Source of the DNA: Pyrobaculum sp.
Lineage (GTDB): Archaea; Thermoproteota; Thermoprotei; Thermoproteales; Thermoproteaceae
Direction: 5' to 3'
NCBI GenBank assembly: GCA_038832545.1
Contig: JAWBJM010000002.1
Coordinates: 1 to 32,000 of the forward strand
Length of the DNA: 32,000 nt
The position numbers and the translations under genes are program-made. Below are positions 4,792 to 8,813 of this stretch, in pieces (position 1 is the first letter of the stretch; every line of letters begins with the position of its first letter). The notes below the pieces were generated by a model. It was given only the letters and a program-made list of their open reading frames with translations, did not search any database and was not told where the DNA came from.

Positions 4792-5201
4792 ACCTGCCAA
4801 CGGCGTATGTAAAACGGCAAGTTTAGAGGCAACGCCGAGAGGCCCGAGGCCCCAGTCGCGTTGGGCGGCAGAGCCGCGGCGACAACGGCGAGGCTCCACA
4901 AGGCGTCAACCGCGCCGGGGAGATAGGCGGCCAGCATACGCTCCCAGAAGCGAAGACAAGAGGCAGAAAGAGGCGTTAAAAATGTTTCACACAGAAAAAC
5001 GCCGGGCAAGCCTCAGCCGATGTTACGCAAATCCCGGCGGTCTGCACCTCTCACGGTAATACGGTTGCAGAGAGCTATATGTAGATTTTCACAGCGGCGG
5101 CCAGGAGGCGGGTCAATCTCGCCGACTTACATCAATCGACTCTACTGTTCCGAGCACCTCCAGTAGATGCCAAGTTACGATACTTTTCAACCAGAATAAA
5201 A

Positions 5202-5209
5202 TTTATAAA
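5202..5209 (+). promoter_or_regulatory. TATA box (TTTATAAA) for a leaderless peptide / rSAM / MFS transcript
   Basis: The palindromic octamer TTTATAAA is centred about 24 nt upstream of ATG 5229. The same octamer sits at the same distance from both intron-containing tRNA genes. Confidence 0.6.
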
Positions 5210-5228
5210 CTCTTTTTTTTTGAGGAAT

Positions 5229-5366
5229 ATGAATACGGCAAGTTACTTACAGCAACCGATATTAGATAACTACGGTAGAGTGAAGATAGCGGTTGCAGAG
5301 ATTGAGGAAATTCCTACGTACGAGATGCAATCGCTTTGTATCAATATATTTTGTAAAATAACTTAA
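5229..5366 (+). CDS. Small peptide, 45 aa (candidate RiPP precursor): MNTASYLQQPILDNYGRVKIAVAEIEEIPTYEMQSLCINIFCKIT
   Basis: Hand translation; the ORF is below the track cutoff. ATG at promoter distance, stop 5 nt before the radical SAM gene. Acidic N-terminal part and a hydrophobic C-terminal part with two Cys. Confidence 0.55.
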   Translation: MNTASYLQQPILDNYGRVKIAVAEIEEIPTYEMQSLCINIFCKIT

Positions 5367-5371
5367 CGAGG

Positions 5372-6334
5372 ATGGGGGAGGTTAAAATCCCACCTCCTTT
5401 TTTCCCTTATATCTCTTCTAAAATTCTACATCTTGTAATGATAGTTACTGAAAATTGTAATTTTAGATGTGTATATTGTTATGAAAGATTTCAACCTAAT
5501 ATTATGGATAAAGATGTGAGTGAAGGAGTTATTAACTTAATAAAAGTTCGCGCGCCGGAGCTATGGTTATTACAGATATCATGGTTCGGTGGCGAGCCTA
5601 TGTTGTACTATAGGTATATTATAAATTTTATGAAAGCTATAGAGGAATATAAACACGATAACTTAAAAATAGTCGGTGACATTAGTACAAACGGTTATTT
5701 ATTAGATCTAGAAAAATTGAAGAATCTTCTTAAACATCATGTCAAGCTTTTCCAAATAACTCTTGATGGCGATAAAACATATCACGATAAAGTCAGAGTT
5801 AAAGCTGACGGCGGGCCTACTTTTGAAAAAATATGGAATAATATAATCACGGCTTCGAGAACCGATCTAGATTTTGAATTTATATTGAGAATACATGTAC
5901 ATAGGGATAATGTGGATAGCGTGAAAAATCTTCTTGCAATGATAGCCTCCGTGATAGGTTCCGATAGGAGATTTAGAATATTTATACGACCTATTGGCAT
6001 GTTTGGCGGTCCAAATGATCATTTGATAAAAACACCGGATCTCGCCACAGTGGGTAAGTTACGTGAATATGCTAAGTCATTAGGTCTGAGGGTATTGGAG
6101 GGCAAGGGCGTGTGCTATGCCTCTGCGCTAAACTCTTTTGTGGTTTATCCAGATGGAAGAGTTGGAAAGTGTACTGTTGCGCTCTATGATGAGAAAAATA
6201 TCGTAGGACGCATCAATAGGGATGGCTCGCTTACTTTAGACGGGGATAAAATCTTGTGGTGGGCTCGTGGGATTCTTCGGGGCGATTTTGAAACAGCCTC
6301 TTGCCCATATGCGGCGCCGGACGCCCGACTCTAG
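5372..6334 (+). CDS. Radical SAM enzyme with a truncated SPASM (twitch-like) C-terminal region; AslB/anSME-like peptide-maturase type
   Basis: CNFRCVYC (CX3CX2C, Cys29/33/36; 5456-5479), GGEP SAM motif, C-terminal CX13GX4C (Cys248, Cys267) and one further Cys (Cys311). The protein has six Cys in total. Confidence 0.85.
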   Translation: MGEVKIPPPFFPYISSKILHLVMIVTENCNFRCVYCYERFQPNIMDKDVSEGVINLIKVRAPELWLLQISWFGGEPMLYYRYIINFMKAIEEYKHDNLKIVGDISTNGYLLDLEKLKNLLKHHVKLFQITLDGDKTYHDKVRVKADGGPTFEKIWNNIITASRTDLDFEFILRIHVHRDNVDSVKNLLAMIASVIGSDRRFRIFIRPIGMFGGPNDHLIKTPDLATVGKLREYAKSLGLRVLEGKGVCYASALNSFVVYPDGRVGKCTVALYDEKNIVGRINRDGSLTLDGDKILWWARGILRGDFETASCPYAAPDARL

Positions 6335-6343
6335 GTATTAAAC

Positions 6344-7576
6344 ATGGTAGGTAAATCCAGGGCTCTTCTCCTGTTGTTGCTCTATTACTCTCCGGTGTGT
6401 GCAACTAGCGCCGTGCTTGGCGTGATAGTAGGGGTTTTTAGCTTTAGAGAACTGGGGATCTTGGGCGCGGCCCTCTCCCTACTGCTTATGCTTATGCCGA
6501 GCTTAATATCCCTATTCGGCGGGGTTTTATCTGATAAAATCGGGAGGGAGAAGTACGCCCTCATAGCGTCAAACATTGCTTCGTCTATTGCGGTGGGGGC
6601 TATGGCGTTTGTTAACGACATATTTCTGTTATTCGCCTTGTACGCCGCCGTGCAGCTAATTGGCGCCTTCACCTCGCCCGTTATATCTGCATATATCCGC
6701 GAGGTATTGGGAGACTATACACATATCTTAAAATTCCGCTCCCTCTCCAGGGCCGTATGTTCAAGTATTAACGTAGCCGCGGCTATAGCCGCCGGCCTTC
6801 TTCTACTCACAAGCAGTAAGTACGCAATCCCCCTATTTCTACTCTCAGCGGCGCTCACGGCATTGTCCACCGCCCCGCTCCTCTTCCTCGACGTGAGAGG
6901 CAGGCCCCGCGGAGGCGCGACGCTCACCGGTATCTTCGGCGCCGTAAGAAGACAGCTGGAGTCAGACCCCTCCATGAGGCTCCTATTCCTCATATACATG
7001 ACGACAGGTATTTTCTCAATGCCCCCTCTACTACTGTGGATATACGACTACTATGGAAATTTAGAGCTGGGGTGGAGCATTACGTTAGTGCTTATGGAAA
7101 TCGGCGGGGCGCTCGGCGGCTTGCTCTCCGCCAGAGTAGGGACCGGCGACTTCTTCCGTATCGCGCTGGCGTTGCCCCTACCCGCGTTAATCACAGGTGC
7201 AATGCCCTTAGTAACAAAAGAGGTAATCGGCTTCTTCATAGTGCTGGCGGCACTATTCATAGAGCAGATACTCCACACCGTCTTCTCCACAGCCTCTACC
7301 AGCTACATAACGGCGTATAGCAGAAGAGAAGCAGTCGCAACGACGATATCCAGCTTCCTGGCGGTTCAGACGGTGATGAATATGATTGGATTAGCCCTAT
7401 GGTCAGCCGTTGCCACGTACATATACCCGCCGTATGTAATGATAGGCGGCATGTCGGCCGAGCTGGTCGTACTAGCCCTACTACTCAACGCCCTAGCACG
7501 ACGGCAGAAACCCCCTCAGACGCCGCCAGCTTCCTCCCACGGCGTTACCTCATCGCAGCCCCCGGCGGCGAATTAA
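6344..7576 (+). CDS. MFS transporter (putative exporter)
   Basis: 410 aa, about 12 hydrophobic segments, MFS signature between TM2 and TM3 (GGVLSDKIGREKY). Starts 9 nt after the rSAM stop. Pro/Ser-rich C-terminal tail. Confidence 0.85.
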   Translation: MVGKSRALLLLLLYYSPVCATSAVLGVIVGVFSFRELGILGAALSLLLMLMPSLISLFGGVLSDKIGREKYALIASNIASSIAVGAMAFVNDIFLLFALYAAVQLIGAFTSPVISAYIREVLGDYTHILKFRSLSRAVCSSINVAAAIAAGLLLLTSSKYAIPLFLLSAALTALSTAPLLFLDVRGRPRGGATLTGIFGAVRRQLESDPSMRLLFLIYMTTGIFSMPPLLLWIYDYYGNLELGWSITLVLMEIGGALGGLLSARVGTGDFFRIALALPLPALITGAMPLVTKEVIGFFIVLAALFIEQILHTVFSTASTSYITAYSRREAVATTISSFLAVQTVMNMIGLALWSAVATYIYPPYVMIGGMSAELVVLALLLNALARRQKPPQTPPASSHGVTSSQPPAAN

Positions 7577-8267
7577 ACAACGCGCCGGCGGCTGTTATAT
7601 CCCGACGCTGTCCACGCAGATATCTGGCGGCCACACTCCGCCCGCCTATGGACTCCATAAATACCGCCGAGAGTTGATAATTTCACTATCTTATCAGAAC
7701 CACCTCGCCGTATACCATCGCCCACCTTGTAAGATAGGCGCAAGGAAGAGACCAATCAAGGGCTTGCTGGTGACGGCGGGAACATGGTATTACACGATAT
7801 GTAGCTGTACGGCCATATTACCAACGCCTCGCTTGGCCTTAGGGTCGTCGTAAGGCTCGTATAGTTGCTGACGAATACACCCCAGGGCGCTAGTTGCGCC
7901 GGGCGGAGGCGAAGACATGAGGAACGCGCCAACTGGTGTGTAATTGAGCCGTGTCATAAAGAGGCCAGAGTAGCGTGTGCGCTTGGGGGAGGGGCCAAAG
8001 TCAAAAGGGGATAGGAGGCCTAACGCCGTCACCCAGTGTGTAATATCGCTATTTGGCGCAGACGGCGTTATGTCCACGTGGCATGCGTACCCTCCCATGT
8101 GTGGAGAGAGGCAATAGACTTGCCGTTGTAAGAGATGTGGGAATTCGGAGAAGCGAGGTGCCTATACACAACGGGTTGAGTCTTGTGAAACACAAGAGAC
8201 TCTTGAGATTTGTCAAGTGTTCGAGGCTGGAGAAAAAAGATAAAAACACCTGACATTATACCGAGAG

Positions 8268-8345
8268 GGGCCCGTAGCTCAGCCCGGTTAGAGCGGCGGG
8301 CTTTTAACCCGTAGGTCGTGGGTTCGAATCCCACCGGGCCCGCCA
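8268..8345 (+). tRNA. tRNA-Lys (anticodon TTT), no intron, CCA encoded
   Basis: Hand-folded cloverleaf: acceptor GGGCCCG/CGGGCCC, D arm GCTC-AGCCCGGTTAG-AGC, anticodon arm GCGGG-CTTTTAA-CCCGT, T arm GTGGG-TTCGAAT-CCCAC, discriminator G plus CCA. An A/T box at 8232-8246 lies upstream. Confidence 0.92.
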
Positions 8346-8529
8346 CGTTGTTATAATTTTAGATGTACTAACCATCCTGTTTAAAAAGATGTAGAACGCA
8401 GTGGTGACACGCCGGAAGCCCCAACGCCTGGCGTTTTCTCTAGTTTGCGACTTTGTAACGGTTGATTGGGCGGCTGACACTGTGTGAAAAAAGACCTCCT
8501 AGTCGCCAAGGCGAAATAGACGTTGGCAA

Positions 8530-8643
8530 TGGGGCCGCCGGGATTTGAACCCGGGATCACGTGGGTACTTACCGCCTGTTGACGGTCCCAAGCCACGCCT
8601 TAGTGGGCAAGTGCCCAATCCTACCAAGCTAGACTACGGCCCT
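8530..8643 (-). tRNA. tRNA-Pro (anticodon TGG) with two introns (about 19 nt near position 25/26, about 21 nt in the anticodon loop)
   Basis: Reverse complement gives AGGGCCG-T-A-GTCT-AGCTTGGTA-GGAT[intron]G-CGTGG-CTTGGG[intron]-CCACG-TGATC-CCGGG-TTCAAAT-CCCGG-CGGCCCC-A. The anticodon TGG is at 8588-8590 (plus strand CCA). Introns lie at about 8599-8617 and 8565-8585. As read, position 1 is A opposite C72. TTTATAAA at 8663-8670 is about 24 nt upstream. Confidence 0.8.

Positions 8644-8681: not shown

Positions 8682-8813
<132 letters not shown>

Follow-up and report, generated by a model that had tools for sequence, protein, structure and literature searches.

In the genome of a hot-spring archaeon, can a very short open reading frame lying immediately upstream of a radical SAM (rSAM) gene be the precursor of a ribosomally made, rSAM-modified peptide (RiPP)? 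To address this question, we examined a stretch of 32,000 nucleotides from Pyrobaculum sp. (GCA_038832545.1, contig JAWBJM010000002.1, positions 1 to 32,000 of the forward strand; hereafter the window), in which a preliminary description had proposed an operon of a 45-aa two-Cys peptide, a twitch-like rSAM enzyme and a MFS exporter. We found that this observation was correct at every coordinate, and that its interpretation as a RiPP locus was supported by comparative evidence. All three genes lie on the plus strand. The 45-codon ORF at 5229-5366 encodes MNTASYLQQPILDNYGRVKIAVAEIEEIPTYEMQSLCINIFCKIT, although a TTG at 5220 would give 48 aa. Its TAA stop is followed by 5 nt (CGAGG) and then by ATG 5372 of a 320-aa rSAM gene (5372-6334), and the stop of this gene is followed by 9 nt and then by ATG 6344 of a 410-aa MFS gene (6344-7576).

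We first examined the region in front of the small ORF. The box TTTATAAA at 5202-5209 is preceded by the A-rich AGAATAAAA, sits 19 nt before ATG 5229, and occurs 9 times in the window against 1.65 expected. A similar AT-rich box was found about 25 nt before the peptide ATG in Vulcanisaeta. The element at 5193-5209 was therefore read as a BRE/TATA-like archaeal promoter, inferred from sequence alone, which would give a leaderless or near-leaderless transcript starting near ATG 5229. A possible attenuator hairpin followed by T6 at 5368-5400, between the peptide and rSAM genes, was also considered, but it was no more stable than shuffled sequence (z -0.34) and lies inside conserved coding sequence, and it was rejected. 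One point of the preliminary description required correction, since the small ORF is not universally unlisted: one public annotation of the metagenome-assembled genome (MAG) calls the 45-aa gene, although most do not. The same annotations start the rSAM gene at Met23 (298 aa), which is probably too short, because residues 5-22 are conserved with the Vulcanisaeta homologue.

To determine whether the small ORF is conserved next to homologous rSAM genes, a point on which the RiPP reading had been expected to stand or fall, we compared loci carrying related short rSAM genes. Such homologues, with 31-50% identity, occur in Vulcanisaeta, Saccharolobus, Marsarchaeota, Thermoplasmata and many bacterial phyla, and they are flanked on the same strand by small ORFs. 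Vulcanisaeta has a 41-aa ORF, a 49%-identical rSAM and a MFS, and similar arrangements were found in Marsarchaeota, two Thermoplasmata, two hot-spring metagenome contigs, Saccharolobus islandicus and about 20 bacterial genomes. A peptide HMM built from four other archaeal loci, without the window peptide, matched the small ORF as the only hit in the window (E 0.0033 among 880 six-frame segments, the next best being 5.4), while a mixed HMM, also built without it, recovered it with E 0.056 among 21,175 segments across all loci. These E-values are modest and rest mainly on the 10-residue leader motif described below. In an independent set of 80 metagenome loci, hits at E<=0.01 were obtained in 17 loci, 16 of them on the rSAM strand and adjacent to it, whereas one (locus L113, minus strand) looks spurious. 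This metagenome scan returned mostly soil bacterial relatives at 32-43% identity and no additional close archaeal loci, and it served as a replication set rather than as an archaeal survey. Only about half of the short-rSAM loci gave a detectable peptide, which is partly due to truncated contigs and strict thresholds. When nine peptides were scanned against NCBIfam, no family matched, and only GG-leader peptides gave weak hits to generic bacteriocin leaders.

We next asked what these peptides have in common. The results showed a shared leader motif, h-x-h-D-x-x-G-R-h-x-h, which in the window reads ILDNYGRVKI (5259-5288) and aligns with IIDEYGRIRI in Vulcanisaeta, VFDKYGRLKK in Marsarchaeota, EIDEYGRTFG in Thermoplasmata, VELDDQGRVIL in Streptomyces and others. 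It is the presumed recognition element for the maturase, and it was found only next to rSAMs too short to hold an RRE or, in three loci (L020, L022 and L100), next to rSAMs whose start is not fixed; none lies next to one that aligns to the RRE part of TIGR04463. The peptides also share a C-terminal N-x-x-C motif. In the window it is N39-I-F-C42 (5343-5354), within the predicted core SLCINIFCKIT (5331-5363), which carries a second Cys (C37). N-x-x-C was present in 22 of 26 peptide tails, while shuffles gave a mean of 4.8 (sd 1.9) and 0 of 5000 reached 22, and Asn was at position -3 of 34 of 64 Cys. The same NIFC was found in Vulcanisaeta and Arcticibacter, and CINxxC in S. islandicus. Two loci deviate from the pattern, since S. 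islandicus has no clear D-x-x-G-R leader and locus L089 has no N-x-x-C. The preliminary description had divided the peptide into an acidic leader and a hydrophobic core, modified by Cys-derived thioether links or by epimerisation. This division is right in outline, but the conserved signals are more specific, and they point to an Asn-Cys thioether rather than to epimerisation.

To investigate the class of the enzyme, the 320-aa protein was searched against profile libraries and solved structures. It has CNFRCVYC, the CX3CX2C motif of the radical-SAM [4Fe-4S] cluster with Cys29, Cys33 and Cys36 (5456-5479), WFGGEP at residues 71-76, and scores 62.8 bits against PF04055 (cut-off 29.5), which places it in the radical SAM superfamily. 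The half-motif C248-X13-G262-X4-C267 (6113-6172), together with Cys311-Pro312 (6302-6307), is the signature of a twitch-type enzyme with one predicted auxiliary site, Cys311 being the third and last candidate ligand. The protein has exactly six Cys, all invariant or nearly invariant in 38 homologues, as is G262, while Cys311 and Pro312 are both invariant, and only three C-terminal Cys are present in the protein and in all 38 homologues. A full SPASM domain, with the seven-Cys motif CX9-15GX4C ... CX2CX5CX3C ... C that binds two auxiliary clusters, is absent, as only positions 1-37 of the 93 in TIGR04085 were matched, at 17.2 bits against a cut-off of 27. A profile search of the C-terminal 115 residues against PDB sequences returned nothing meaningful (best E 0.66, a ribosomal protein), so the auxiliary-site Cys could not be mapped residue by residue onto CteB, and only an alignment to anSME region 263-290 and the TIGR04085 half-match support the assignment. 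There is no RRE either: only 28 residues precede the first cluster Cys, and in short relatives the upstream in-frame stop leaves under 45 extra residues. Nothing else recurs next to the rSAM in the archaeal loci beyond the peptide and, in 6 of 8, the transporter. The absence of an RRE and the truncated SPASM agree with the preliminary description.

We also determined whether the enzyme clusters with non-peptide families, which the preliminary description had named as a second refutation of the RiPP reading, and it does not. Its best NCBIfam matches are all Cys-rich RiPP maturases, and its best PDB match is the thioether synthase CteB, both by sequence (E 1.6e-26) and by fold (E 1.6e-15) when an AF2 model with mean pLDDT 94 was compared. 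The anaerobic sulfatase-maturating enzyme profile TIGR03942 scored 70.5 bits against a cut-off of 349, and no sulfatase gene is in the neighbourhood. A PADLOC scan gave only partial matches of the rSAM core to the prokaryotic viperin (pVip) models, 47 and 39 bits over residues 23-135 and 25-181, with no sign of a defence system.

To examine the third gene, we analysed the 410-aa protein and its counterparts. It matches PF07690 MFS_1 (57.2 bits, cut-off 33.4) and has about 11 hydrophobic segments, consistent with a MFS transporter that is the presumed exporter or immunity pump. A tblastn search with this protein against all loci found only the identical copies in same-species MAG contigs, but pairwise BLASTP and phmmer showed that it is 26% identical over 371 aa to the MFS that follows the Vulcanisaeta rSAM (E 3e-17). 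A 9-12-TM protein, MFS or 10-TM, follows the rSAM in 6 of 8 archaeal cassettes. Bacterial neighbours are typical RiPP partners, including a C39-peptidase ABC exporter next to a GG-leader peptide, HlyD, S41 peptidase and JmjC. There is a GC3 break between the rSAM (0.34) and the MFS (0.63), and the two genes may therefore have different histories in this genome. A search for att-like repeats flanking the cassette, which lies next to tRNA-Lys, found no convincing direct repeats, and an integrated element is not supported, although GC3 is heterogeneous.

Taken together, we consider with fairly good confidence that this is a three-gene RiPP cassette, probably transcribed as one leaderless operon from the TATA box at 5202. 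In this view the 45-aa product is a precursor whose N-terminal part carries the leader motif (I11-LDNYGRVK-I20) followed by an acidic linker, and whose C-terminal 11 residues are the core. The enzyme, having no RRE, would recognise the leader directly, and its CX3CX2C cluster would cleave SAM to give the 5'-deoxyadenosyl radical. C248, C267 and C311 would hold a single auxiliary Fe-S cluster with one open iron site, which could bind the thiolate of a core Cys, although a three-Cys site could instead bind a [2Fe-2S] cluster or no cluster. The radical would abstract a hydrogen from the acceptor residue, most likely Asn39 at C-beta (NxxcB-like) or C-alpha (QmpB-like), and the carbon radical would then couple with the cluster-bound sulfur of Cys42, giving a small thioether ring and a mass change of -2 Da per link. 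An rSAM-installed Cys-S to carbon thioether in the core defines the ranthipeptide/sactipeptide class, and the core here has two Cys and the conserved N-x-x-C. Precedent for such chemistry exists, as NxxcB makes an Asn C-beta to Cys-S thioether in N-x-x-C motifs with the Cys bound to an auxiliary cluster, and QmpB makes an Asn C-alpha to Cys-S link (PMC9389541; PMC11851443). However, these characterised Asn-Cys thioether synthases have full SPASM domains with two auxiliary clusters, and CteB has an RRE; this enzyme has neither, so the chemistry cannot be transferred by homology. The MFS protein would export the product or protect the producer, and since no leader protease is encoded in the cassette, a host protease would be needed. 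Our analysis establishes the gene order, the conservation of the peptide with its leader motif and N-x-x-C core, the class and domain content of the enzyme and the conserved transporter, whereas transcription, cluster binding and Fe-S content at the auxiliary site, the thioether and its acceptor, leader removal, export and the biological role (antimicrobial or signal) are inferred.

The alternative that survives best, though unlikely, is that the cassette is a RiPP locus whose enzyme does something other than thioether formation, such as L-to-D epimerisation (YydG/EpeE-like), a C-C or C-O cross-link or another Cys modification, with N-x-x-C serving recognition, metal binding or a later step. 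In its favour, EpeE is also about 320 aa, lacks an RRE and appears among the fold matches (E 5e-9), the single three-Cys auxiliary site differs from that of every characterised Asn-Cys thioether synthase, twitch-type enzymes such as WprB make C-C links, and the window core is hydrophobic, as the preliminary description had pointed out. However, the only nearly universal core feature is Asn at position -3 of a Cys, exactly the substrate motif of a known thioether synthase, and the nearest curated families and the best structural match are Cys-directed enzymes. EpeE ranks well below CteB, anSME, ChlB, SkfB and SuiB, and the cores have no conserved aromatic residue of the kind cyclophane formers require. 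It is very unlikely that the peptide is a scaffold for an intracellular product, such as a redox cofactor or a small molecule excised as in PQQ or mycofactocin, with the MFS gene as an unrelated neighbour. PqqE and MftC do belong to the same SPASM/twitch superfamily, PqqE appears among the weak matches, and the GC3 of the MFS differs sharply from that of the rSAM. Against this, the cores are hypervariable in length, sequence and copy number, some loci having 2-3 tandem precursors or multi-core precursors, which is typical of secreted RiPPs and not of cofactors. Exporters of three different kinds (MFS, C39-ABC, HlyD) recur next to the cassette, the MFS is retained in Vulcanisaeta and Thermoplasmata, the cassette has a patchy distribution and sits near mobile genes, and no further cofactor-pathway genes are present. 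Least likely of all, a chance ORF in an AT-rich promoter region, with an rSAM acting on a protein or a small molecule as anSME or a cofactor maturase does, would fit the shortness of the ORF, its modest E-values and its absence from most annotations, but not the conservation of leader and core motifs at the same position and strand across two domains of life, the core-motif enrichment, the lack of an adjacent sulfatase gene or cofactor enzyme, or the scores of anSME, MoaA and the tungsten-cofactor maturase far below their cut-offs.

Only lanthipeptides from haloarchaea have been validated experimentally among archaeal RiPPs, and rSAM-type clusters in archaea are known only as bioinformatic predictions (PMC12144867), which agrees with the preliminary description that no rSAM RiPP has been characterised in Crenarchaeota. 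Literature searches, restricted to open-access papers, found no description of this rSAM subfamily or of the D-x-x-G-R leader. It is possible, though slightly less likely than not, that the cassette represents a distinct RiPP class spread across Bacteria and Archaea and absent from curated family libraries, in which a minimal maturase with no RRE and a single three-Cys auxiliary site would read a short, possibly beta-hairpin-forming D-x-x-G-R leader directly and cross-link an N-x-x-C core. If so, the Pyrobaculum, Vulcanisaeta and Saccharolobus members would be the first rSAM-modified peptides from hyperthermophilic Thermoproteota, and the ring chemistry or the mode of leader recognition may turn out to be new. 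The locus gives a concrete, minimal and testable example with a defined leader motif and a defined core motif, and a homologous cassette lies in the complete S. islandicus genome CP002425 (strain REY15A, a genetically tractable model). As a natural minimal version of the thioether-synthase scaffold, the enzyme bears on how leader peptides are recognised without an RRE and on what the second SPASM cluster is needed for, and thermostable members could also be useful peptide-cyclisation catalysts.

Finally, we compared the cassette with the closest known systems. Among curated families, TIGR04463 (rSAM_vs_C_rich), Clo7bot, CefB, FlmE/OhkG and PapB, all maturases of Cys-rich peptides, scored 134.3, 116, 111, 91 and 87 bits, far below the curated cut-offs (340-600 bits; 525 for TIGR04463), and the cassette belongs to no curated family. 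The window enzyme aligns to positions 81-371 of the 438-position TIGR04463 model, and it and its short relatives cover only about 80-375, lacking both the RRE end and the second half of the SPASM domain, while longer relatives of the window enzyme (loci L023, L026, L061 and L065) align over nearly the full length. The epipeptide epimerase YydG/EpeE resembles the window enzyme in size and in lacking an RRE, acts on a small peptide encoded just upstream and has an exporter in its operon, but it ranks lower as a fold match and showed no significant sequence-level match, and epipeptide cores are not known to be defined by Cys or by an N-x-x-C motif. The NxxC subfamily of streptococcal RaS-RiPPs (NxxcA/NxxcB) has the same Asn-x-x-Cys substrate core motif. 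NxxcB has a SPASM domain with two auxiliary clusters, a feature that is absent here, and is found in streptococci next to an shp/rgg quorum-sensing operon; the D-x-x-G-R leader has not been described for it. CteB, the thermocellin/SCIFF ranthipeptide thioether synthase (PDB 5WGG/5WHY), is the best solved-structure match over the rSAM core and by fold (TM 0.66-0.72), and likewise acts on a Cys-containing C-terminal core. Its Aux I cluster is reported to have an open site that binds a substrate Cys. The four CteB active-site positions that can be aligned, F112, F152, T186 and S210 (PMC10288494), are conservatively matched by Y37, F72, S105 and T130. However, identity is only about 20%, CteB has an N-terminal RRE, its residues before about 98 having no counterpart here, as well as a full SPASM domain with two auxiliary clusters, and it links Cys to Thr C-gamma (PMC9389541), not to Asn.

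To verify the architecture of the putative operon, we first re-read the sequence directly, and every feature listed in the preliminary description was present at its coordinates. The octamer TTTATAAA lies at 5202-5209 and is preceded by the A-rich stretch AGAATAAAA. ATG 5229 opens a 45-codon ORF that ends with TAA at 5364-5366. Five nucleotides later, ATG 5372 opens a 320-codon ORF with CNFRCVYC (Cys29/33/36), WFGGEP (71-76), C248-X13-G262-X4-C267 and Cys311-Pro312, and the rSAM protein has exactly six cysteines. Nine nucleotides after its stop, ATG 6344 opens a 410-codon ORF that matches PF07690 MFS_1 (57.2 bits, cut-off 33.4). The palindromic octamer TTTATAAA occurred nine times in the window (3031, 5202, 8663, 8834, 13779, 20618, 22273, 25193 and 30445) against 1.65 expected from shuffles, about five-fold over-represented, which is consistent with its use as a preferred archaeal TATA box in this genome. 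Between the upstream DUF72 gene and the cassette promoter there is a 437-nt GC-rich spacer (4792-5228, about 59% GC) with no supported ORF and no Rfam match, although some annotations call a 54-aa minus-strand ORF there.

The window comes from a Pyrobaculum sp. metagenome-assembled genome. A homology search with the enzyme gave 3,258 hits at E<=1e-5, and a 298-aa version of the rSAM was 100% identical in five public contigs. Those annotations start the gene at Met23, but residues 5-22 (KIPPPFFPYISSKILHLV), within 5372-5437, are conserved with the Vulcanisaeta homologue (KINPKFYPYLSNKFLYLI), suggesting that 5372 is the better start. One of the public annotations (locus L003 in our set) does call the 45-aa gene. 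We also examined the sequence GGAGGT...ACCTCC followed by T6 at 5368-5400, which overlaps the rSAM start and looks like a terminator or attenuator, but it was no more stable than shuffled sequence (z -0.34) and it encodes the conserved PPPFF.

To investigate whether the small ORF is real, which had been set beforehand as the central test, we compared the neighborhoods of homologous rSAM genes, and the ORF passed. The closest non-identical homologue, 49% identical and from a Vulcanisaeta MAG, is preceded by a 41-aa ORF and followed by an MFS gene. The two peptides share a leader motif, ILDNYGRVKI in the window against IIDEYGRIRI in Vulcanisaeta, and the core tetrapeptide NIFC. We next fetched 80 genome loci with a profile of 38 homologues. 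Same-strand small ORFs next to the rSAM gene carried the same two features in Marsarchaeota and two Thermoplasmata among the archaea, and in Terriglobia, Gamma-, Alpha- and Betaproteobacteria, three Streptomyces, Planctomycetota, Bacteroidota and cyanobacteria among the bacteria. Two hot-spring metagenome contigs at 44-45% identity added LLFDDHGRVLAV...FNWKCG and ISLDEYGRVLV, and Saccharolobus islandicus has a 40-aa gene ending in VCINGNCGCGT, which compares with LCINIFCKIT in the window. The peptides of S. islandicus and of locus L089 deviate from one of the two motifs, and about half of the short-rSAM loci yielded no peptide at our thresholds.

We then performed two HMM tests in which the window peptide was excluded from the model. 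An HMM built from 16 such peptides ranked the window segment 5085-5363 at E 0.056 among 21,175 six-frame segments, and an HMM from only four archaeal peptides found it as the single hit in the window, with E 0.0033 among 880 segments and 5.4 for the next best. The statistical support of the window peptide itself rests on a 10-residue motif plus synteny. New non-seed hits from the first HMM at E below about 0.1 were same-strand and adjacent to the rSAM gene. In an independent set of 80 metagenome loci, the same HMM gave hits at E<=0.01 in 17 loci, of which 16 were same-strand and adjacent to the rSAM, while one (metagenome locus L113, minus strand) looks spurious.

To determine whether the core is conserved, the region after the leader motif was examined in 26 peptides, and 22 of them contained N-x-x-C. 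Composition-preserving shuffles gave a mean of 4.8 (sd 1.9), and none of 5000 reached 22. The control motifs N-x-C, N-x-x-x-C, D-x-x-C, S-x-x-C and C-x-x-N were not enriched, and Asn occupied position -3 of 34 of the 64 cysteines. In the window peptide the motif is N39-I-F-C42, and a second Cys lies at position 37. Some relatives showed unusual precursor arrangements. Locus L162 (428-1315) has one long ORF with repeated ...KNIGCCS... core units, locus L100 (509-1380) has three tandem precursor genes, and locus L021 (3634-4340) has two precursors downstream of the rSAM with 3-4 N-x-x-C motifs each.

The domain content of the enzyme was next examined by profile searches. Pfam detected only Radical_SAM and Fer4_12. 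The best NCBIfam matches, TIGR04463, Clo7bot, CefB, FlmE/OhkG, PapB and CcpM, are all maturases of Cys-rich peptides, but all scores were far below their cut-offs. The alignment to TIGR04463 covered only positions 81-371 of 438, while longer relatives of 440-486 aa (Paenibacillus, Parageobacillus, Gemmatimonadota, Longimicrobium) aligned over nearly the whole model. The window enzyme and its short relatives therefore lack two parts of that model, the first roughly 80 positions, which in CteB are the RRE, and the second half of the SPASM domain. The C-terminal 113 residues matched only positions 1-37 of the 93-position SPASM model, at 17 bits against a cut-off of 27. In 38 homologues, C248, C267 and C311-P312 were invariant.

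For structural comparison, a profile search of PDB sequences put CteB first (E 1.6e-26) and aligned the family to CteB residues 98-277, which lie after its RRE. The AlphaFold model was confident, with mean pLDDT 94 and pTM 0.91, and Foldseek with this model also ranked CteB first (E 1.6e-15), followed by anSME, ChlB, SkfB, SuiB, DesII, a viperin-like enzyme and EpeE. Six CteB active-site positions have been used for functional profiling (PMC10288494), and the four that can be aligned, F112, F152, T186 and S210, correspond to Y37, F72, S105 and T130. This is consistent with a CteB-like pocket, although in the absence of an outgroup comparison it is not discriminating.

To investigate the genomic context, we inspected the genes around the rSAM. 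In six of eight archaeal cassettes a polytopic membrane protein of about 390-420 aa follows the rSAM. It is an MFS in the window, in Vulcanisaeta (26% identical to the window MFS over 371 aa, E 3e-17) and in the Thermoplasmata locus L015, and a 9-10-TM protein with no Pfam match in S. islandicus, the archaeal cassette L087 and Marsarchaeota. In S. islandicus (locus L006, cassette 5821-8544), a 171-aa protein with no Pfam match (6869-7384) is inserted between the rSAM and the 10-TM protein. It is absent from the Pyrobaculum and Vulcanisaeta cassettes and could be an accessory factor such as a protease, a leader-binding protein or an immunity protein. Bacterial cassettes carry typical RiPP partners, namely a C39-peptidase ABC exporter next to a peptide with a GG cleavage motif, HlyD, S41 peptidases, JmjC/cupin hydroxylases and TPR proteins. 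Archaeal and related cassettes sit next to mobile or variable-region genes, namely a TnpB/Cas12f-like gene (L087, 5442-6668), rve and DDE transposases (locus L090, 429-1184 and 5846-7225), and a PIN/MazE pair with a resolvase (L006, 8842-10215).

Within the putative operon itself (5229-7576) there is a sharp break in GC3, which was 0.39 for the peptide and 0.34 for the rSAM (0.28 in its first half), against 0.63 for the MFS and 0.63 for the upstream DUF72 gene. The Vulcanisaeta cassette showed no such break (0.33/0.41/0.44), and no att-like repeats were found flanking the window cassette. About 700 nt downstream of the MFS gene lies tRNA-Lys(TTT) (8268-8345, plus strand), found by both ARAGORN and Rfam. 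Rfam alone found a second, 114-nt tRNA on the minus strand (8530-8643, 33 bits), probably intron-bearing, and an 86%-identical 42-nt copy of its 3' end (8684-8725, minus strand) lies 154 nt away and suggests a third tRNA gene, both of which were missed by ARAGORN.

The D-x-x-G-R leader was never found next to a confirmed long, RRE-bearing relative. Most of its rSAM partners are too short to hold an RRE, while for loci L020, L022 and L100 the start is uncertain because the upstream frame stays open. Long relatives such as those of loci L061 and L065 have GG-leader peptides with NNGC cores instead. Within this clade the core motif therefore travels with the catalytic domain, and the leader type travels with the presence or absence of an RRE.

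These comparative results supported the interpretation in the preliminary description that the locus is a RiPP operon, which is the best-supported reading. In this view, the rSAM enzyme would recognize the D-x-x-G-R leader directly and install a Cys-derived cross-link in the N-x-x-C core. While the gene arrangement, the conserved motifs and the domain content were observed directly in the sequences, the recognition of the leader, the chemistry and the auxiliary cluster are inferred, and nothing here is shown biochemically. A three-Cys auxiliary site with an open iron would fit Cys activation. No protease is encoded in the archaeal cassette to account for leader removal. The alternative readings are all much less likely; among them, different chemistry on the same peptide ranks first, followed by a cofactor-type product. 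A spurious ORF is the weakest, as the small ORF passed the conservation test.

No NCBIfam, Pfam or PADLOC model captured the enzyme subfamily or the peptides, and literature searches, limited to open-access papers, found no description of it. A 2025 survey states that rSAM-type RiPP clusters are predicted across archaea, including the TACK group, and that only haloarchaeal lanthipeptides have been validated (PMC12144867). An rSAM RiPP cluster in an archaeon is thus expected from surveys, and the locus is not a new category, which makes it less striking than the preliminary description had suggested. It remains well above ordinary for two reasons, the family-wide leader and core signature, and a homologous cassette in a complete S. 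islandicus genome that makes the question directly testable.

As for characterized systems, two precedents exist for the proposed chemistry. NxxcB links Asn C-beta to Cys-S in N-x-x-C motifs, with the Cys bound to an auxiliary cluster, and QmpB links Asn C-alpha to Cys-S (PMC9389541; PMC11851443). The characterized enzymes have two auxiliary clusters, so the chemistry cannot simply be transferred, and the parallel with NxxcB does not include a comparison at the sequence level. What is new is a minimal, RRE-less branch of the thioether-synthase clade, with a single putative auxiliary site and its own leader type, which has members in hyperthermophilic Thermoproteota.
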